A stretch of 32,000 nt of DNA from Candidatus Electrothrix sp. GW3-4 (lineage in GTDB: Bacteria > Desulfobacterota > Desulfobulbia > Desulfobulbales > Desulfobulbaceae): contig NZ_CP147990.1 in assembly GCF_037902255.1 (NCBI RefSeq), positions 3,060,001 to 3,092,000 on the forward strand, written 5' to 3'. The notes beneath the pieces were generated by a model. That model was given only the letters and a program-made list of their open reading frames with translations, did no database searches and was not told the DNA's origin. Below, piece by piece: positions 7,987 through 28,768 of the stretch. Both the position numbers and the translations under genes were made by a program. Numbering within the stretch: position 1 is the stretch's first letter; each line of letters starts with the position of its first letter.

Positions 7987-8035
7987 TTAGATGTTTGCGT
8001 CGAGAACATCTTTGTGTCATTGTTGCTCCCTATAT

Positions 8036-8051
8036 AGCAAGTGCCGTGCCG
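8036..8051 (-). promoter_or_regulatory. Sigma-54 (-24/-12) promoter of the nifH operon
   Basis: The minus strand reads cGGCAC-GGCAC-TTGCT, against the consensus TGGCAC-N5-TTGCW. GG-N10-GC spacing is exact. It lies about 105 nt upstream of the nifH ATG. Confidence 0.65.
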
Positions 8052-8146: not shown

Positions 8147-8162
8147 TGTTCTGTTGTTTACA
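8147..8162. promoter_or_regulatory. Candidate NifA upstream activator sequence (TGT-N10-ACA)
   Basis: TGTtctgttgtttACA is an exact TGT-N10-ACA match, about 100 bp upstream of the -24/-12 element. An A/T-rich tract (8056..8100) lies between them and could bend DNA or bind IHF. Confidence 0.45.
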
Positions 8163-8219
8163 TTTAAGAAGGTGCGCTCCGTTTTTGTCGACACGTTGCA
8201 CTACAACAGATTGTGATGA

Positions 8220-8254
8220 GCAGTTGAAAAGCCCTTGCAAGGTATTTCAACTGC
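8220..8254. promoter_or_regulatory. 35-nt inverted repeat (possible operator or structured element) upstream of the cassette
   Basis: GCAGTTGAAA-agCCTTGCAAGGta-TTTCAACTGC has 10-bp perfect outer arms and an inner 10-bp palindrome, CCTTGCAAGG. No T-run follows on either strand, so it is not a classic terminator. Confidence 0.4.
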
Positions 8255-8352
8255 TGATGGATGAAAAAATTACTACAGTATATCAGTCTGTTTTGTTATA
8301 GTTTGATTTGTCATCAACATGATCCCTATGAATTCTACCGAAGGAACATATT

Positions 8353-8745
8353 ATGGAACCCGTTATTACCAGCATTGCTGCGGCTGTTGCCCTTGGAGCG
8401 GCGGCAGGACTCAAGGATACAGCGTCAAAGGCTGTGACAGATGCCTATGCCGGGCTAAAGAAGTTGATTCAGGATCGATACAATAAGGATGAAGATGTGA
8501 CTGATGCGTTTGATTATCTGGTCAAGAAACCGGAGGCGGAGGGCAGGCAGCAGGAGCTGGCAAAGGCCCTGCAGGAAGTCGAAGCGGATAAGGAGCATGA
8601 GCTGGTTCATGCGGCTGAAGCCTTGCTGGCAGAAGTGGAGAAGCAGCCGGGCGGAGAAGAAGCTGTCAACCACATTGTTAATCAGTTGATAATAGGGGAC
8701 GGAAACATCGTTGCCGGTGCAGGGGACGTGAATATCAAGCTCTGA
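8353..8745 (+). CDS. Small helical protein with a glycine-zipper-like N-terminus and a C-terminal NQxxxGDxNIVAGxxDVNI motif (candidate effector or adaptor of the adjacent NLR-like NTPase)
   Basis: 130-aa ORF with a GAAGGAA ribosome-binding site 8 nt upstream. The N-terminus is ITSIAAAVALGAAAGL, the middle is charged and helical, and the C-terminus is NQLIIGDGNIVAGAGDVNIKL*. That tail is repeated at the N-terminus of the next gene. Confidence 0.65.
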   Translation: MEPVITSIAAAVALGAAAGLKDTASKAVTDAYAGLKKLIQDRYNKDEDVTDAFDYLVKKPEAEGRQQELAKALQEVEADKEHELVHAAEALLAEVEKQPGGEEAVNHIVNQLIIGDGNIVAGAGDVNIKL

Positions 8746-8753
8746 GCTCTCCT

Positions 8754-11228
8754 ATGAATCAGGAAGTCAACGGGGACAGGAATATTGTCGCAGGTCGGGA
8801 TGTCAATATCACGATTCAGGACGGAAAATCGGCCCCGCCTCCCCTCTCCAACAAATTCCAGCTTGCCAAGCTGCCGCGCACCGATGCCCGGCTTTTCGGC
8901 AGGGAAGAGGAACTAAACCTGCTTGACCAAGCCTGGCAGGAGGAAAAGACTAAGGTGCTGGTGCTCACCGCCTTTGGTGGCATGGGCAAGACCGCCCTGA
9001 TGCAGACCTGGCTGGACGCAAAAGGCTATGCAGGCGCGGATGCGGTCTATACTTGGTCCTTCTATTCTCAGGGCACAGCCGAAGACCGGCAGGCATCGGC
9101 GGCGGAGTTCTTTGCCAGCGCCCTGCCCTGGTTCGAGCATGACGGCAGCCCGCTGCCCTCGGAGCATGACCGGGGCCTGCGGTTGGCCGAGCTGGTCTGT
9201 CGTCAGCGTACCCTGCTCATTCTTGACGGTCTGGAGCCGCTGCAATATCCCTTAGCCGGGGCGATGGATGGTGCCTTGCGGGATAAGGGAATACTCTGCC
9301 TTTGCCGTCAGTTGGCAGCACAGAATAACGGTTTATTGCTCATCTCCTCCCGCCAGCCGGTGCAGGAGCTGGTCGATCGACCCGGTGTGGAGCAGCACGA
9401 GCTGGACCCGCTTTCCAAAGCAGCCGGGGTGGAACTCTTTCGGGCGGCAGGCATCATCGGCACGGACAAGGAGCTTGTTGCCGCAGTGAATACCTATAAC
9501 GGCCATGCCCTGTCACTGAATCTGCTGGCGACCTATCTGTGCGAATACGAGAACGGAGACATCCGTAAGCAGGACAGCCTGCGTTGCCTGACCGAATTCC
9601 CGGAAGAGACCCGCACCAGTCGCCACGCCTTTAAGGTGATGGCAGCATACGAGCAACAGTTATCTGGCACAGCGGATTTGCAGGTGCTCTACAGTCTTGG
9701 ATTATTTGATCGTCCGGTGTCTGCCGGAACGATGAACTGCCTCCGTGAATCAGAAATTGAGCACGTCGGTGGGCCGAATAATGACAAAGTTTTTCATGCG
9801 GCCTGTAGACGGCTGCGCAGATTGGGGCTGCTGAACAGGGATGATGCGGAGCATCCCGGCACACTTGACTGCCACCCGTTGGTGCAGCAGTATTTCGGCA
9901 AACGCTTAGAGGAGTTGCACCCTGAAAGCTGGCAGCAGGCCCATGCCCGGCTGTACGAGTATTTCAAGGCACTGCCGGATAAGGAGCTGCCCGATACTTT
10001 GGAGGAGATGGAACTGCTCTTTGCTGCGGTGCGGCATGGGTGTGCGGCGGAGATGCACCATGAGACGCTGCATAAGGTATATTATCCAAGAATATTAAGA
10101 AATAATGAAGATTATCTATGTGTTAAAATTGGCTCGACGAATGCTGATCTTACTATTTTATCTCGTTTTTTTGATAAACTTTGGCAGGTACCGATCTCAA
10201 CGTTAAGTAACTACGATAGGGCTCTGCTGATAAGTAGGGTGGGATTCATTCTGCAGGGATTAGGTCGCCTAAATGAGGCACTTCCAACAATACAAGTTGG
10301 GCTTAAATGGTATATCAATCAGGATGACATGATAAATGCAGCAATCATGGCTGGGAATTTAAGTCAATTATATCTATCTATCGGTGAGGTTAGCAAAGCG
10401 GTTAATGCTGGTCGTCAGGGCTTTGAATTTGCCGTTAAGAGCAATTGTACTTCTCAGCGAATTGATAGTCTGACTGACCTTGCTGATGCTCTGCATCAAA
10501 GCGGTACGGTTTATGAATCCCGTGACCTTTTTGTTGAAGCGGAAAAGAAGCAGAAATTGGAAGCTGACCTGCTGTATTCTATGCGCGGGATTCATTACTG
10601 TGATTTACTGCTGACAGCAGGGGGATGGCACGAGGTCAAAAAACGAGCAAAAAAGACATTAGGATGGGTAAAAAAGGATGGTGGTTTATTAGACGTTGCC
10701 TTGGATGAACTTTCTCTGGGGCGAGCTGCTGTGCAGGAGGCGATTGCCCTGTCCGATCAGCTTACCGTTTTTTCACATCTCGGTCTTGCGCCAGATTTAG
10801 CATGCCTTTCTCTGCCCGGAAGCACCATAGCATCGGCCAATCGAGTTATTGAAGCCATGCGCCGGGCCAATGATTGGCTAAATCAGGCGGTTAATGGTCT
10901 GCGTGAAGCAGGACAGGAAGACGATTTGCCTCGCGGCCTGCTTGCCCGTGCCGCGTGGCACCGGTGGGCAGCGGTGCTGCTTGATCAATCCGACATCACC
11001 CAAGCTGTGCAGGATTTGCAGGAAACCGAAGAGATCGCCCAACGCGGTGGCATGAAGCTGCACCTGATTGATTTCCACCTTGAGGCGGCCCGCCTGAGCC
11101 TTACCGCAGACCACGACATCCTCGGCCGCACCCCTGCCGAACATCTGGCCGCTGCCAAAAAAGGCATTGACGAAACCGGCTATAACCGCCGCCTGCCCGA
11201 AGTAAAAAACATCGAAGAATTGCTTTAA
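8754..11228 (+). CDS. STAND-class P-loop NTPase (NB-ARC/AAA_16-like) with C-terminal TPR-like repeats and a short N-terminal motif in place of an effector domain (bacterial NLR-like)
   Basis: 824 aa. The N-terminus is MNQEVNGDRNIVAGRDVNITIQDG. LFGREEELNLLDQAW precedes Walker A (AFGGMGKTAL, 8976..8993). Walker B is RTLLILDGLE and an MHD-like CHPLVQQYF is present. The C-terminal ~380 aa is helical-repeat/TPR-like (e.g. LGRLNEALPTIQVGLKWY, AGNLSQLYLSIGEVSKAVNAGRQGFEFA). Confidence 0.85.
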   Translation: MNQEVNGDRNIVAGRDVNITIQDGKSAPPPLSNKFQLAKLPRTDARLFGREEELNLLDQAWQEEKTKVLVLTAFGGMGKTALMQTWLDAKGYAGADAVYTWSFYSQGTAEDRQASAAEFFASALPWFEHDGSPLPSEHDRGLRLAELVCRQRTLLILDGLEPLQYPLAGAMDGALRDKGILCLCRQLAAQNNGLLLISSRQPVQELVDRPGVEQHELDPLSKAAGVELFRAAGIIGTDKELVAAVNTYNGHALSLNLLATYLCEYENGDIRKQDSLRCLTEFPEETRTSRHAFKVMAAYEQQLSGTADLQVLYSLGLFDRPVSAGTMNCLRESEIEHVGGPNNDKVFHAACRRLRRLGLLNRDDAEHPGTLDCHPLVQQYFGKRLEELHPESWQQAHARLYEYFKALPDKELPDTLEEMELLFAAVRHGCAAEMHHETLHKVYYPRILRNNEDYLCVKIGSTNADLTILSRFFDKLWQVPISTLSNYDRALLISRVGFILQGLGRLNEALPTIQVGLKWYINQDDMINAAIMAGNLSQLYLSIGEVSKAVNAGRQGFEFAVKSNCTSQRIDSLTDLADALHQSGTVYESRDLFVEAEKKQKLEADLLYSMRGIHYCDLLLTAGGWHEVKKRAKKTLGWVKKDGGLLDVALDELSLGRAAVQEAIALSDQLTVFSHLGLAPDLACLSLPGSTIASANRVIEAMRRANDWLNQAVNGLREAGQEDDLPRGLLARAAWHRWAAVLLDQSDITQAVQDLQETEEIAQRGGMKLHLIDFHLEAARLSLTADHDILGRTPAEHLAAAKKGIDETGYNRRLPEVKNIEELL

Positions 11229-11620: not shown

Positions 11621-11636
11621 TGGCACATGATGTGGA
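11621..11636 (+). promoter_or_regulatory. Partial sigma-54-like element upstream of nifV (good -24, poor -12)
   Basis: TGGCAC-atgat-gTGGa has a perfect -24 hexamer, but the -12 position reads GG instead of GC. It lies 83 nt upstream of the nifV ATG. I found no TGT-N10-ACA site within 220 bp upstream. Confidence 0.3.
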
Positions 11637-11718
11637 TACTTATATCTATATCTTTTTTTTACCAGTAGTTCAGATTCCGTCGTCTCCCTGAACTGAGCGA
11701 CCAAATCATAACGAACAG

Positions 11719-18806: not shown

Positions 18807-20408
18807 CTAGCGAAAACTTGGCACAGAAGGGAACAACTCTGGATCGGTATGGGGGATAAAGCGAGAACCGGAAAAACGGATCATGAATTCTTGGTTTACA
18901 TTCAGCTCAATATAGGTGATCTTACGAGCAATCTCCAAAGAGCGGGCAAAGGCTGTATGATCAAGCAGGATCATCTCGGCTCCGCGCAGAGAGCTGTTGC
19001 CCACCGGCTCAAAGGTGGTCAAAGGGAGGTCCGGCAGCATGCCCAAGGTAATGGCCTGTTGGGGATCAATATGCTTGCCAAAGGCACCGGCCACAGCAAT
19101 TCGGGCCAGATCGCTGAATTCCAAGCCAACCTGATTGATCAGGGTCACTAAAATTGCGTACATGGCCGCTTTGGAGCGCATCATAGCATCCAGGTCAAGC
19201 TGACTGAGCACCACTGGCTCCGCATTCCCCGCCTCCCCGGCAGCAACCACCAAAAAGACCTGTTCACCGCCCATCTCCAGCAGATGCTCCTTAACAAAAC
19301 GTCTCTGCGCTGCTGGCTGGCCCGGAAAGGTCGACTGAAACTTCCCCCGCAGATCAACAATGCGGGCGAGATAGAGCTCTGCCACCAAATCAATCAACCC
19401 GGAACCGCAGAGCCCCAGAGGGGGGGTCTCATTGATACTGCGCCAATCGAGCTGCCAAGTATTCCGATCAATGGCCACATGCTCGACAGCCCCGCTGGCA
19501 GCTCGCATCCCCATCCGGGCCACCCCGCCCTCCAGGGCTGGCCCCGCAGCCCCGGCACAGGCGATCAGCCACTCGCTATTGCCCATGACCACCTCGGCAT
19601 TGGTGCCCACATCAATGAGCATGCAGGTCTCCTCTGCCTGATCAAGCCCCGTCGCCAGGATACCGGAGATCAGGTCGCCACCAAAATAACTGCCCCGCCC
19701 CGGCAAGACCCGGACCGTTGCCTGTTTATGGAGCTTTAGGCCGATCTCCTGGGCCAAGAAAGGATCAGGGGCATTGACCAAGGGGATGTAGGGCTCCCGG
19801 CAAATATGCCGTGGACTGATCCCGAGCAGGAGATGCACCATAGTGGTATTGCCAGAGACAGCCACGGCCTGCACATCCTGCGCTTTGACCTCTGCCTCCT
19901 GACAGAGCTCATCAAGCAATCCATTAATGGAGACGATAACCGCCTCCTGAAGCAGAGCAAGCCCCTTCCCTCCTTCATCCTTTCGCTCGGCAAAGTGAAT
20001 TCGAGTGAGGATGTCTGCTCCATGAGTCACCTGACGATTGAGGGCAGCACCACGGGCCAGGGTATCTCCAGTTAAGCAATCCAGCAGGGTTGCCTCCAAA
20101 TGGGTGGACCCGAGATCAAGGGCCAAAACGGGCAGAGATTTCGGTGGTTCTGCAACAAAGTCAACCAGAACAAGGTGATCATGCTCATAGTGGACTATTA
20201 CATAGCCCGTAAAATCAGCAGCCCTGAACGAGGCCGCAATTTCGACTATACAGGCAAAGGGAATATGGACCGAACAACTGCGCAATTGCGCTGGCAGCGA
20301 TTCAGTCAGCGCCGCCTTCAATCGATCAAGGTCAGCCGTGTTATCATGCAGGCTCGGTTGGACCGCTTCCACCCGAATAAGGGCTACCAAGGGTATTGTT
20401 TTCAGCAA
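18807..20408 (-). CDS. ASKHA-fold ATPase of the DUF4445/RACo-like family (related to the reductive activator of corrinoid proteins), lacking an N-terminal 2Fe-2S domain
   Basis: 533 aa. LALDLGSTHLEATLLD is the phosphate-1 motif. Also present: AVSGNTTMVHLLLGISP, LIDVGTNAEVVMGN, ACAGAAGPALEGGVARMGMRA. No CxxxxCxxC ferredoxin motif occurs in the first ~90 aa. Family recall from memory. Confidence 0.6.
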   Translation of the reverse strand: MLKTIPLVALIRVEAVQPSLHDNTADLDRLKAALTESLPAQLRSCSVHIPFACIVEIAASFRAADFTGYVIVHYEHDHLVLVDFVAEPPKSLPVLALDLGSTHLEATLLDCLTGDTLARGAALNRQVTHGADILTRIHFAERKDEGGKGLALLQEAVIVSINGLLDELCQEAEVKAQDVQAVAVSGNTTMVHLLLGISPRHICREPYIPLVNAPDPFLAQEIGLKLHKQATVRVLPGRGSYFGGDLISGILATGLDQAEETCMLIDVGTNAEVVMGNSEWLIACAGAAGPALEGGVARMGMRAASGAVEHVAIDRNTWQLDWRSINETPPLGLCGSGLIDLVAELYLARIVDLRGKFQSTFPGQPAAQRRFVKEHLLEMGGEQVFLVVAAGEAGNAEPVVLSQLDLDAMMRSKAAMYAILVTLINQVGLEFSDLARIAVAGAFGKHIDPQQAITLGMLPDLPLTTFEPVGNSSLRGAEMILLDHTAFARSLEIARKITYIELNVNQEFMIRFSGSRFIPHTDPELFPSVPSFR

Positions 20409-25241: not shown

Positions 25242-27875
25242 TCAGATCCCCAACAATCGATACACCGCATCCATATCGACCTCCTGGCGGAGCACCCCAG
25301 CCAACCGATCCAAGGCCGGTTCCAAATCGTACTTGGCGCCTTGCTCTTTCAACAGCGGAAACCCCTTTCTTGCCCGCAAATCATTGATGAACCAACGACG
25401 AAAGGGGTCAGAGTCAAAGATACCGTGCAGATAGCTGCCCCAGACCCGACCGGTCCGGTCTGCGGATCCGCAGGAAGCTCCATCGGCAAAGGTCAGCAGG
25501 GGTTTCGATGCGATACCGCCCCCGCCATCCCCTGTTATTCTGCTGTTCTTGTTGCTGCCAGTTTGCCCATGATGAATCTCATAGCCATGCACCGGCTGAC
25601 CAGACGGAAGATGCTGCCCTTCCCGGCGGGTCAGGGTCTTATCCGCAGCAAGTTCTGTGACCAGATCCAGCAGGCCCAAGCCGTGCAGCAGGGTACCGGG
25701 TTCACCTTCAATTCCGTGCGGATCAGCCACCGTTTTGCCCAGTATCTGGAAGCCCCCACAGATCCCTGTTATCTGGCATCCCTGCCCAGCCAGGCGGCAG
25801 ATGGCCCTGTCCAGGCCGGTTTGGGCAAGCCAGGCCAGGTCCGCAACCACATTCTTGGAACCGGGCAGGATCACGCCATCCGGTGTGCCCAGCTCATCGA
25901 TCCGGCACACGGTACGTAGCCAGACATCTTTTTCCTCCAGCAGCGGCTCCAGATCGGTGAAATTGGAGATATGGGGGAGATCAATCAGGGCTATCTCGAC
26001 ATGTTCACCCGCAGGCTCTGCACTATCATAAAGGCCCGCCTTGAAGCTCACCGAGTCCTCCTGGGGCAGGCCCAAGTTGCTGAGCCAGGGAACCACTCCA
26101 AGCACCGGCTTGCCTGTCCGTTGTTCGACAAAGGAATGAGCATCTGCCAGCAGAGAGGCATCACCCCGGAAGCGGTTGACCAGAAAGCCAGCCAGTAATT
26201 GCCGCTCCCAAGGGGCCATCACAGCCACATGCCCGATAAAAGAGGCATAGACACCACCCCGATCAATATCACCCACCAACAGGGCCGGAGACTGACTGTA
26301 TTGGGCCATGCGCATATTGACGATATCATGGGATTTCAGGTTAACCTCCCCTGGACTCCCTGCTCCTTCGAGAATAATGCAGTCGAAATCCGCTGCCAAT
26401 GCGTCATATGTCCGGCAGACCTCCTGCCAAGCCTCTTCCTTATAGCAGACATAATCCGCCACCCGCATATTGCCGACAGGTTTTCCGTGGACAATGATCT
26501 GGCTCCCCACGTCGGAAGATGGTTTCAGGAGCACAGGATTCATGCGTACATCCGGATCAAGACGACAGGCCTGGGCCTGCACGACCTGAGCACGGCCCAT
26601 CTCGCCGCCATCCCTGGTTACGTAGGAATTCAGGGACATATTCTGGGCCTTAAAGGGCGCCACCCGCACTCCGTCCTGCAAGAGGATCCGACAGAGCCCG
26701 GCCACCAGCACGCTCTTACCCACATCCGAGCCTGTGCCAAGCAGCATCAGCGAGGGTGTCTTATTACGCTTCAGACTTGCGATGGTTTTCCGATCATCCT
26801 GCAAGAGGATCTGTTGCAACGCAGCCAACAACTGCCTGTTTTCCTCTACTGAGCGCACTGCCACCCGAAAATAGCCTTCATCCAGGCCCTCGTAATTGGC
26901 ACAGACCCGAATGGCGATCTTGACCTGCTGTAAAAGCCGATCTGCCAACTCAGGGGCTGTCAGCTTGTCCTTCAGCTGAACCAAAAGAAAATCGGCTACT
27001 CCTGGAATCACCTTGAGTGCAGAAATTTTCGCCAGACCCCGGCATAAGACCTCTCGATTCTCTCGAACGATCTCCTGGGTTCTTTGAATATACTCGGCAT
27101 CACCAATCATGGTCTTACCAGCGACCTGGGCCAAGGCATTCACCGACCACGGAGCAAGCTGCCCCCTTATCGCATCACAAAGTTCCTCAGAGGCAGCCAG
27201 GAATCCAAGGCGCAAGCCAGGAACAGCAAAGAGCTTGGTCAGAGAGCAAAGGGTAATGATATTGTCCCGGCATCCTGCCAGAGAAGTATAGCCCGCAACA
27301 AAACCGGCAAAGGCCTCATCCAGAAGAAAGAGGACTTCCCGGTGTTGGTCTGCCAGGGCCAGCAAGGCTTCCCGGTCGTTCATCCTGCCGGTGGGATTAT
27401 TGGGCTGGCCCAGGATCAGCAGATCTCCTGGCTGAAGCAAAGCAGAGATCTGCGCCAGATCCGGTTGAAAATCATGCTTTGCTGACAGCGGTATCGCCTT
27501 GACCTCCACTCCAGCCTGCTCACAGGCCTGACGATAATCAATATAGGCAGGCACCGGTATGAGTGCCCGCTGTATCTTTTTATCCGCAAAAGCACGAAGC
27601 GCTGCGTAGAGCAGATCCGAGGTACCGTTGCCGGGCAGGATCTGTTGCCCAGGCAATCGATACTGGTGAGCAAGGGCCTGCACCAGATCCGCTGACTCTG
27701 GATCAGGATAATGGACAATATCCGGCATGCGCGCCGCCAGCATGTTCCAGAGATAGTCAGGCGGACCGAGTGGGTTAATATTGGCACTAAAATCAAGAAC
27801 CTCTTCCGGCAAACATCCCTGCCTAACCGCTATCCTCCTGATATTACCACCATGACCGCTATACTTACTCGTCAT
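25242..27875 (-). CDS. cobD/cobQ: Fusion protein: L-threonine-O-3-phosphate decarboxylase (CobD, N-terminal ~365 aa) fused to cobyric acid synthase (CobQ/CbiP, C-terminal ~505 aa)
   Basis: The N-terminal half has SANINPLGPP, GQPNNPTGR and SLTKLFAVPGLRLGF (class I/II aminotransferase fold with the PLP lysine). After the linker DDRKTIASLKRNKTPS come LMLLGTGSDVGKSVLVAGLC, FKAQNMSLNS and a GATase domain (GICGGFQILG, GYEIHHGQT, GSYLHGIF). It is a single uninterrupted 877-codon ORF. Confidence 0.85.
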   Translation of the reverse strand: MTSKYSGHGGNIRRIAVRQGCLPEEVLDFSANINPLGPPDYLWNMLAARMPDIVHYPDPESADLVQALAHQYRLPGQQILPGNGTSDLLYAALRAFADKKIQRALIPVPAYIDYRQACEQAGVEVKAIPLSAKHDFQPDLAQISALLQPGDLLILGQPNNPTGRMNDREALLALADQHREVLFLLDEAFAGFVAGYTSLAGCRDNIITLCSLTKLFAVPGLRLGFLAASEELCDAIRGQLAPWSVNALAQVAGKTMIGDAEYIQRTQEIVRENREVLCRGLAKISALKVIPGVADFLLVQLKDKLTAPELADRLLQQVKIAIRVCANYEGLDEGYFRVAVRSVEENRQLLAALQQILLQDDRKTIASLKRNKTPSLMLLGTGSDVGKSVLVAGLCRILLQDGVRVAPFKAQNMSLNSYVTRDGGEMGRAQVVQAQACRLDPDVRMNPVLLKPSSDVGSQIIVHGKPVGNMRVADYVCYKEEAWQEVCRTYDALAADFDCIILEGAGSPGEVNLKSHDIVNMRMAQYSQSPALLVGDIDRGGVYASFIGHVAVMAPWERQLLAGFLVNRFRGDASLLADAHSFVEQRTGKPVLGVVPWLSNLGLPQEDSVSFKAGLYDSAEPAGEHVEIALIDLPHISNFTDLEPLLEEKDVWLRTVCRIDELGTPDGVILPGSKNVVADLAWLAQTGLDRAICRLAGQGCQITGICGGFQILGKTVADPHGIEGEPGTLLHGLGLLDLVTELAADKTLTRREGQHLPSGQPVHGYEIHHGQTGSNKNSRITGDGGGGIASKPLLTFADGASCGSADRTGRVWGSYLHGIFDSDPFRRWFINDLRARKGFPLLKEQGAKYDLEPALDRLAGVLRQEVDMDAVYRLLGI

Positions 27876-28768
27876 ATGGCCCCCCCCTGCTTGAGGACAA
27901 AGACAAGGGCAACCACGGCTTCGGCCAGCTCGCAGGCAGCCCCCAGGGTATCCCCAGTTACCCCACCGATCTTCTGCCGACAGAAAAGGGCAAACAGGGC
28001 CGTCATGAGCAGCACAGCAAAGGCCGCCAGAAGCCCCAAAGGGCCTGCCGCTGCCCAGGCAATACCGGTGAAGACCAGCAGGATAGCTAAGGCCTGAAGT
28101 CGAGCGTGGTGTGTATGAAACGAATCTTGAAACAGGCTGCCCAACCCGCCTTCCTGTCGCGCATAGGGTAACAGAGCCATGAGCAGCAGGATGGCCATGC
28201 GCCCGGCAATGGGCATCAGGAACACAGCAACGAGCAACTGATTATTCATGGTAGCCAGACAGACGATCTTGAGGGAGAGAAGGAGGATGAGGGCGATCAC
28301 CCCCATAGCGCCGGTGGCTGAATCCCGCATGATCTCCAGCATCCGCTCTCTGGGGCGGGCACTGAAAAAACCATCGGCGGTATCGGCCAAGCCATCCAGA
28401 TGGAGCCCGCCGGAAAAGGAGAGCAAGAGCAAAACGGTCAGGACAGCTGTCACCGCAGGCGGCAGGAGCAAGCTCAGGCACCAGGTCAAGGGCAGGACAA
28501 TACAGGCAAAGAGCAGGCCAACTAAGGGGAAAAAAGGCACTGCCCGGGCCAATTCATCCTCACTGGTACCAAAGCTGCCGGAAATGGGAATGATGGAGAG
28601 GAAACGCAGGGCCGCGACAAAGGAACCTATCAGCGTAATAAGGCCCCTGTTCAACGGCTGATGGGTCCTTGGCTCAGAACTTCTCTTCTGTTCAGGACCT
28701 TTTCTCTGCAGCCGCGCTGTTTTTTTTCTGCGCCTGTTGCCGGAGCTGCGCCTGTTCAACAGTCTCAT
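27872..28768 (-). CDS. cobS: Adenosylcobinamide-GDP ribazoletransferase (cobalamin synthase) CobS, with a basic N-terminal extension
   Basis: Polytopic membrane protein with LRFLSIIPI and GLHLDGLADTADGFFS motifs. ATGA overlaps occur with both cobT (28765..28768) and cobD::cobQ (27872..27875). The first ~45 aa are Arg/Lys-rich and not CobS-like. Confidence 0.85.
   Translation of the reverse strand: MRLLNRRSSGNRRRKKTARLQRKGPEQKRSSEPRTHQPLNRGLITLIGSFVAALRFLSIIPISGSFGTSEDELARAVPFFPLVGLLFACIVLPLTWCLSLLLPPAVTAVLTVLLLLSFSGGLHLDGLADTADGFFSARPRERMLEIMRDSATGAMGVIALILLLSLKIVCLATMNNQLLVAVFLMPIAGRMAILLLMALLPYARQEGGLGSLFQDSFHTHHARLQALAILLVFTGIAWAAAGPLGLLAAFAVLLMTALFALFCRQKIGGVTGDTLGAACELAEAVVALVFVLKQGGAI

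Follow-up and report, generated by a model that had tools for sequence, protein, structure and literature searches.

In fungi, HET-S/NWD2 and related pairs of a HeLo or HELL protein and an NLR signal through a short motif: oligomerisation of the NLR templates this motif on a helical, membrane-targeting protein whose gene lies next to that of the NLR. Dyrka et al. (2020; bioRxiv 10.1101/2020.01.06.895854) surveyed pairs of a Bell-domain protein and an NLR that share bacterial amyloid signalling sequences (BASS motifs); the preprint places the motif pairs in Actinobacteria, Cyanobacteria, Chloroflexi, Bacteroidetes and Archaea and reports amyloid fibrils for a BASS1 protein. Bab/Agp, a Bell-related pair, is reported to work by amyloid signalling in Escherichia coli, where activation leads to cell death and abortive infection (Ibarlosa et al., 2024; bioRxiv 10.1101/2024.11.07.622273).

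Here we describe two adjacent genes, A and B, in a stretch of 32,000 nucleotides (the window) from Candidatus Electrothrix sp. GW3-4, a cable bacterium, i.e., a filamentous and multicellular member of the Desulfobulbaceae. The two open reading frames (ORFs) lie on the plus strand with 8 nucleotides between them. Gene A (8353..8745) encodes a 130-amino-acid Bell-domain protein, a candidate cell-death executioner with a C-terminal signalling motif. Gene B (8754..11228) encodes an 824-amino-acid NLR-like STAND NTPase that has a TPR-like sensor and no effector domain. The products match hypothetical proteins WGN25_13660 (A) and WGN25_13665 (B) at 100% identity. Together, A and B probably constitute a two-gene NLR/Bell regulated-cell-death module that operates by amyloid templating, like the pairs of Dyrka et al. 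(2020); we hold this reading with moderate confidence.

The shared terminal motif and its variation among cable bacteria

The C-terminus of A (residues 110-130, NQLIIGDGNIVAGAGDVNIKL; 8680..8742, plus strand) is a BASS-type candidate amyloid signalling motif, and its match is at the N-terminus of B (residues 2-22, NQEVNGDRNIVAGRDVNITIQ; 8757..8819, plus strand). The two segments share 13 identities over 20 aligned positions (Smith-Waterman score 52), a score reached by none of 20,000 composition-preserving shuffles of the head of B (mean 19.9, standard deviation 4.4, maximum 47). The best score of the A tail against the rest of B is 24, and nothing close was identified in the six frames of the window. 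Asparagine, glutamine, glycine, valine and isoleucine make up 67% of each motif; lysine, proline and leucine together number three in the tail of A and zero in the head of B. According to the preprint, bacterial amyloid signalling sequences are enriched in Q, N, G, V and I and contain little K, P or L (Dyrka et al., 2020; bioRxiv 10.1101/2020.01.06.895854). In AlphaFold2 (AF2) models, residues 115-130 of A (predicted local distance difference test score, pLDDT, <50) and residues 1-31 of B (pLDDT 26-39) are predicted to be disordered and lie outside the globular domains. For B, an initial annotation, made from the letters of the window, had named an N-terminus predicted as part of a globular domain as a result that would refute its proposal; the AF2 model does not show this.

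In eight of eight cable-bacterium loci, the gene immediately before that of the NTPase is small and A-like. The loci are the window, L022, L072 (E. communis), L074 (E. gigas), L075 (sp. YB6), L076 (Electronema aureum), L001 (E. marina) and L023. The gap is 2-8 nucleotides between the longest ORFs in four loci and 0-87 nucleotides between the called genes in the other four. The neighbouring genes are unrelated, and are different in every cable-bacterium genome compared. Across the eight pairs, tail and head co-vary: the summed cognate score of 535 was reached by only 5 of 40,320 permutations. GSGHIFSG is common to both genes of L076, SG-x-HN-x-V...GD-x-V-x-I to both genes of L075, and N-[IA]-F-[ST]-G-[ST]-G to both genes of L072 and of L074. 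A very different G/A-rich motif (GSGAIAQ..AAGAGGVAVGGNV) is common to both genes in L001 and L023. The NTPase body of L023 is 64% identical to B and is joined to its head by the same linker (PPLSDKFQLARLPQTDARLFGREEE), yet both genes of this locus carry the G/A-rich, BASS6-like motif. Genomic linkage and co-variation of the terminal motifs had been named beforehand, in the initial annotation, as tests of the proposed pairing. The first held in all eight loci and the second held as well, including this wholesale swap on both genes. When all 50 non-identical pairs of a Bell gene and its downstream gene were compared, cognate pairs in which the tail is short exceeded the 99th percentile of the non-cognate scores.

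The orthologous NTPase bodies of cable bacteria, which are 55-74% identical, carry at least six distinct classes of N-terminal motif. Orthologues P0107, P0108, P0110 and P0112 have heads of the same class as B; heads of other classes are found on further orthologues. Among homologues of A, the tail likewise varies by class, whereas the helical domain is conserved. Relatives of B at 42-50% identity have TIR/SEFIR, alpha/beta-hydrolase (DUF676/PGAP1-like), trypsin-like or transmembrane modules where B has its 21-residue head. Thus, the short motif fills the effector slot of an NLR-type protein. The B family follows NLR logic, with an effector or an adaptor at the N-terminus, and the motif replaces fused effectors as a module.

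Some relatives depart from this arrangement. Three homologues of B (P0090 from Ca. Electrothrix scaldis, P0152 and P0171) have a charged, coiled-coil-like head of about 70 residues and lack the short beta-type motif, which suggests a different type of adaptor on the same NTPase body. In loci from Manganitrophaceae and metagenomes (L012:1679-3141, L016:3944-5403 and L037:2253-3718), Bell proteins with BASS4-type tails are not followed by a P-loop NTPase. The downstream gene encodes a protein of about 315 amino acids that has no Pfam match and an N-terminus (VSARDVDVHVGSRNYLILRG...) resembling the BASS4 tail, and this may be a non-NLR class of partner. In L041:829-2162 and L043:648-1789, the protein encoded 17 nucleotides after a Bell-like protein contains an FGE-sulfatase domain (Pfam 1e-50 for L041, where the protein is complete; in L043 the gene runs off the contig). 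These proteins also begin with a short motif (GVYFN.ANVSGNLIIQ).

Architecture of the two proteins and genomic setting

Homology search with A identified 86 relatives with a common N-terminus (M-[DE]-P-x-x-x-I-x-A-A-x-A-x-G-A-A-A-G-L-K-D-T-A-S-x-A-V-x-D-A-Y-x-G-L-K) and with C-terminal tails that differ by class. A profile search of 1.84 billion representatives extended the family to 4263 clusters at E<=1e-3, mostly of 130-160 amino acids, with a few of them fused to longer proteins. The full alignment of A was too variable to serve as seed for the locus search; an alignment of the N-terminal 43 residues worked. A is 46% identical over 108 residues to the L018 protein (BLASTP, E 4e-14), the tail of which is identical to the published Bell-side BASS4 entry C06_s094, and on this homology A is a Bell-domain protein, directly homologous to members of the published set. 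The supplementary dataset of PMC8086366 lists the BASS motifs that Dyrka et al. found on the Bell side. The tail of P0084, another homologue of A, is nearly identical to dataset entry C06_s106, and further tails are near entries of BASS2 (L066/P0068), BASS3 (L017, L020 and L069) and BASS6 (L054).

The Bell domain of A (residues 1-114; 8353..8694, plus strand) is predicted to comprise six helices, at residues 3-20, 26-43, 47-58, 63-75, 82-96 and 101-114 (AF2 model from 37 sequences; mean pLDDT 77.7, predicted template modelling score, pTM, 0.72). Helix 1 (PVITSIAAAVALGAAAGL; residues 3-20, 8359..8412, plus strand), which comes after M-E-P, is rich in hydrophobic and small residues and is the most hydrophobic part of the protein (Kyte-Doolittle mean 1.87 vs <=0.92 elsewhere). 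Bell-domain proteins are described as short (~120-140 amino acids), with a predicted alpha-helical domain of ~100 amino acids and, at position 2 or 3, a residue of negative charge (Dyrka et al., 2020). The start of A, MEPVITSIAAAVALGAAAGL, is of the 'MEPIS' type, with glutamate at position 2; this kind of start is conserved in the 37 homologues, in which P3, A11, G15, A16 and G19 are invariant or nearly so. The 'MEPIS' region is reported to be conserved in Bell, Babybell and Hell domains and at the N-termini of some Avs/Avast2 and bNACHT proteins (bioRxiv 10.1101/2024.11.07.622273).

Scans of A against Pfam, NCBIfam and PADLOC returned no match other than a spurious one to GajB (PADLOC, E 0.0034), and a PDB sequence search with the profile of A returned nothing meaningful. 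Precomputed annotation places PF20701 'HetE-N' on A and its homologues, whereas our local Pfam-A scan gave no such match even at E<=10, so two Pfam resources disagree on this family. We found no mention of PF20701 'HetE-N' in the literature searched. Two variants of the Bell gene were also seen. P0271 (688 amino acids) has a Bell-like domain fused straight to a long TPR_12/TPR_10 array, with no Pfam match to an NTPase domain. Ca. Electrothrix marina has, 1.6 kb upstream of its intact pair, a second A-like ORF of 72 amino acids (L001:1788-2006) that consists of the Bell N-terminus only and looks like a decayed paralogue.

In B, a proline-rich linker (DGKSAPPPL, residues 23-31; 8820..8846, plus strand), disordered in the AF2 model, separates the motif from the NTPase, and a P-rich stretch is kept at this position in homologues. 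The nucleotide-binding oligomerisation module follows (residues ~34-410; 8853..9983, plus strand), as delimited by invariant columns, the AF2 model and fold matches; it is a P-loop NTPase with helical and winged-helix parts. The Walker A sequence AFGGMGKT (residues 73-80; 8970-8993, plus strand) and the Walker B sequence LLILDGLE (residues 154-161; 9213-9236, plus strand) were identified as invariant features in 39 homologues, as was HPL at residues 374-376, a possible MHD-like motif. The invariant columns are G75, G76, G78, K79, D158, G159, E161, H374, P375 and L376. The remainder is a TPR-like alpha-solenoid (residues ~416-823; 9999..11222, plus strand), a presumed ligand sensor, recognised from the AF2 model, the TPR_12 profile and Foldseek.

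The AF2 model of B, built with the 39 homologues, has a mean pLDDT of 86.5 and a pTM of 0.83. It consists of the disordered residues 1-31, an alpha/beta NTPase with helical and winged-helix parts to about residue 410, and an alpha-solenoid (416-823) of all-helical hairpin repeats, for which pLDDT is mostly >90. Foldseek matched the model to 6mfv, a TPR-containing STAND protein (1.1e-15), Apaf-1 (2.2e-9), MalT (1.2e-7), CED-4, Avs3 and plant NLRs, and its C-terminal half to the TPR domain of LGN, MalT domain III and Rap TPR domains. As modelled, B is a STAND NTPase fold with a TPR-like solenoid. No recognisable effector, DNA-binding or other output domain was identified in B by Pfam scan or in the AF2 model. 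Domain layout and fold matches agree with the initial annotation, in which B was an effector-less STAND NTPase-TPR protein. A PDB sequence search with B returned nothing meaningful. The B family is large (>3640 matches), and some orthologues have precomputed NB-ARC or NACHT labels.

The 8-nucleotide spacer from the stop of A to the start of B (GCTCTCCT; 8746..8753, plus strand) has no purine-rich Shine-Dalgarno stretch before the ATG of B, and the two genes are probably co-transcribed and translationally coupled. A spacing of <=10 bp is given for 57% of the published Bell/NLR pairs (Dyrka et al., 2020; bioRxiv 10.1101/2020.01.06.895854). The cassette, its spacer and the missing Shine-Dalgarno sequence had already been recognised in the initial annotation, and all of the strings quoted there (ITSIAAAVALGAAAGL, NQLIIGDGNIVAGAGDVNIKL, MNQEVNGDRNIVAGRDVNITIQDG, the PPP linker, FGREEEL, GGMGKT, LLILDGLE and CHPLVQQYF) are present.

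The cassette is flanked by nifH-nifI1-nifI2-nifD-nifK on the minus strand and by nifV and a nifA-type activator on the plus strand, the two groups being divergently transcribed. A sigma-54-type promoter (GGCAC-N5-TTGCT) and a NifA-type site (TGT-N10-ACA) were identified upstream of nifH (window positions 8030-8050, minus strand, and 8150-8165), and a TGGCAC element 5' of nifV (11621-11640). Thus, the cassette sits between two nif control regions. Between gene A and the nifH control region there is a near-perfect 14-bp hairpin (8216-8229 / 8245-8258). A scan for promoters and terminators was uninformative, with counts at the level of shuffles. We found no mobile-element or foreign-DNA signature around the cassette (no convincing flanking repeat, no clear composition break), and no relatives in viral contigs. 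Elsewhere in the window, on the minus strand, are a gene for a RACo-type corrinoid activase (18807-20408) and cobalamin biosynthesis genes for a CobD/CobQ-like fusion (25242-27875) and CobS (27872-28768), none of which has an apparent connection with the cassette.

Proposed mechanism and alternative readings

We infer the working of the pair by analogy with the described systems, from amyloid formation, templating of A by B and membrane attack by A to the trigger and the biological role. B would act as the sensor, with its TPR-like solenoid recognising a cue, most plausibly a phage or damage-associated molecule. Binding of the cue would lead to nucleotide-dependent oligomerisation of B, and the oligomer would gather several of the disordered 21-residue N-terminal motifs. 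Once clustered, these may adopt a cross-beta (amyloid-like) fold, a nucleus that would template the near-identical C-terminal motif of A. Conversion of the tail would free hydrophobic helix 1 from the helical bundle, and the helix could then insert into the membrane and kill or disable the cell. In a cable-bacterium filament, one cell would be sacrificed for the rest.

Several results weigh against this reading, and some of them concern the motif itself. Motif classes were compared with one cross-validation fold (fold 0, one sixth) of the published nr70 set, i.e., 175 motifs of BASS1-10. Controls were as expected, an actinobacterial tail scoring 116 against BASS3 and a Chloroflexi tail 81 against BASS4. 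The motif class of the window is ambiguous in this comparison: its hhalign scores are alike for BASS1 (17.6), BASS4 (17.4) and BASS6 (17.8) and exceed only modestly the between-family background, taken from fold 0 only, of 4-13. Its Smith-Waterman scores to the nearest neighbours (44-46) are inside the shuffle range (maximum 45-47). Other classes of cable bacteria are closer to defined families. The FSG/HHHY class (for example MPDTIDQNVQGSGHAFSGSGDVHVTHHHY) scores as BASS1-like, with Smith-Waterman scores to BASS1 of 58-66 vs 35 +/- 4 for shuffles and an hhalign score of 24.3 (probability 82%), and the G/A-rich class is BASS6-like (score 57). The window and FSG classes align in register by hhalign with a probability of 97%, a result to which common flanking residues contribute (GGEEAV upstream and a P-rich stretch downstream), and their joint pattern is N-Q-x-[IV]-x-G-[DN]-x-N-I-[VF]-[AS]-G-x-G-[DN]-V-x-[IV]. 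We read the window motif as a divergent relative of BASS1 that is outside the current families and is linked to them through sister variants. The initial annotation had suggested that the motif may be new; the system belongs to a published family and is not a new kind.

Other points of this sort concern the two proteins and their surroundings. B falls below the Pfam cut-offs for NACHT (24.0 vs 26.7 bits), NB-ARC (11.6 vs 23.5), AAA_16 (20.5 vs 32.6) and TPR_12 (30.0 vs 30.1, residues 490-558). Of the profile searches suggested with the initial annotation, those with B gave sub-threshold matches, and A had no HeLo-type Pfam match. A PADLOC-DB 2.0 scan of B gave no family at E<=1, NCBIfam added nothing for B, and the window contains no defence-island marker. 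The six-helix model of A has no significant Foldseek match in PDB, so a link to Babybell, HeLo or MLKL at the level of the fold is putative. For the A-B pair, amyloid formation, cross-seeding, toxicity and trigger are drawn from analogy.

The common motif could instead be an ordinary stoichiometric contact, a beta-strand or short beta-helix through which activated B recruits or releases A heterotypically. At 21 residues the motif is short, it is not confidently in any experimentally tested BASS family, and G-x-N-I-V-A-G-x-D-V-N-I resembles a single turn of a beta-helix. However, its position, length, composition, predicted disorder and co-variation match those of motifs reported as amyloid- or prion-forming, and sister classes on orthologous proteins are BASS1-like; we regard a non-amyloid contact as unlikely. 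It is scarcely credible that the similarity of tail and head is a functionless accident of low complexity or the relic of a split gene. G, N, V and I are frequent in the two segments, and Bell domains do occur fused to longer proteins (P0271 is an example), but the shuffles described above never reach the observed score, the match is kept through several motif classes in independent loci, and a simple split would not duplicate the junction. Co-variation across loci refutes this explanation.

Two further alternatives address the role of the pair. The cassette could belong to the control of nitrogen fixation, with B as a MalT-like STAND regulator of nif and A as its partner, given its place between the nifH control region and nifV-nifA and the presence of MalT among the structural matches of B. 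The initial annotation had also drawn attention to this location, which is confirmed for the window. However, it recurs in no other locus compared and holds no hint of function: nif genes are present in none of the other cassette-bearing loci, the neighbourhoods all differ, and membership of the nif regulon was rejected on these grounds. Homologues are also widespread in non-diazotrophs. As B has no DNA-binding or other output domain and nif genes are absent from the other loci, we consider a nif role highly improbable, and the link of the cassette to nitrogen fixation appears accidental.

Alternatively, the module may be as described and serve the filament (removal of damaged cells, controlled breakage, or self/non-self discrimination) and not antiphage defence. 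The host is a multicellular filament, the published survey reports that Bell/NLR pairs go with multicellularity and not with phage load (Dyrka et al., 2020), and several pairs that differ in motif class are present in cable bacteria. B is without a PADLOC match, the surroundings are not recognisable as a defence island, and viral contigs yielded no relative. Against a filament-level role, Bab/Agp, the sole pair of this kind tested so far, is an abortive-infection system, B relatives have effectors of the TIR, hydrolase and protease types, which are typical of antiphage STAND proteins, and the position of the cassette changes from genome to genome, a common trait of defence genes. We think this role rather unlikely. 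Templated signalling from B to A that ends in cell death remains our preferred reading.

Comparison with described systems

The closest counterpart is the set of Bell/BASS/NLR pairs of Dyrka et al. (2020). Common to these pairs and the window are a helical Bell protein of about 130 amino acids that is acidic at position 2 and has a hydrophobic first helix, and a motif of about 21 residues, rich in N, Q, G, V and I, at the Bell C-terminus that is repeated at the N-terminus of the next gene. This gene encodes a collinear STAND NTPase with TPR repeats (8 nucleotides away in the window), and the host is multicellular. The initial annotation had called the host context unusual. The position between nif operons recurs in no other locus compared; the host, as a multicellular filament, is within the known distribution, and such a system is expected there. 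The pair of the window differs in its lineage (cable bacteria, Desulfobulbaceae), in its motif variant, which is not clearly assignable to any of BASS1-10, and in the way its NLR is recognised: the survey called NLRs by Pfam NACHT and NB-ARC, and B is just under both cut-offs.

Bab/Agp from E. coli ECOR25 is built alike: its executioner is small and helical, begins with a conserved hydrophobic helix ('MEPIS') and ends in an amyloid motif (BASS11), to which the N-terminus encoded by the neighbouring sensor gene corresponds. In the Babybell crystal structure and in AlphaFold models of Bell domains, the other helices cup helix 1. Unlike A, the Babybell domain is shorter (~80 amino acids, four helices around helix 1); the motif family also differs, and the pair comes from a prophage defence hotspot and not from a site between nif operons.

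The antiphage STAND NTPases (Avs1-4/Avast and bNACHT) share with B the STAND NTPase and a C-terminal repeat sensor, and Avs3 is among the fold matches of B. Their TIR, hydrolase or protease effectors have counterparts fused in B relatives, and some Avs and bNACHT proteins are reported to start with a MEPIS-type helix like that of A (2024 preprint). In contrast, B has no fused effector and no PADLOC match, and its effector is on a separate gene connected by the common motif.

The fungal HET-S/NWD2 systems have the same logic of an NLR-templated motif and a separately encoded helical partner; on the fungal side, the motif families are HRAM, sigma and PP, and the sensor has WD repeats. The initial annotation had likened the A-B pair to both HET-S/NWD2 and the Bell/BASS/NLR pairs, as a Bell-like protein and an NLR-like partner joined by a terminal motif, and every available test at the sequence level agrees. 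A has no match to Pfam HeLo, SesA or HET-s_218-289 at E<=1 and no fold match in PDB, and its likeness to the fungal HeLo/HET-S proteins is best regarded as analogy or very remote homology.

We found no report that connects cable bacteria with NLRs or amyloid signalling in the literature searched. The pair of the window would extend NLR-associated amyloid-type signalling to these organisms, a third major type of filamentous multicellular bacteria, and fits the published idea that death circuits accompany multicellularity. A more speculative possibility, which we advance only tentatively, is that cable bacteria have expanded the module into parallel NLR-to-Bell circuits that are barcoded by their motifs, each head class having a Bell partner of its own, with NIVAG-x-DVNI as a new BASS family and altruistic death at the level of the filament. 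If true, a single electrically coupled filament could house several sensors that fire independently of one another, with no cross-talk, and the circuits would isolate infected or damaged cells, beyond classical abortive infection alone. The cable-bacterium set is a clean natural experiment, in that near-orthologous sensors differ mainly in their 20-residue heads and the Bell partners follow, and it offers ready-made cognate and non-cognate pairs for studying how motifs set the specificity of signalling.

The kind of system is already published, and the window pair is a new example of it in a new lineage and not a new mechanism. New here are the cable-bacterium lineage, a motif variant apparently outside the defined families, and orthologous sensors with swapped heads that match their partners.

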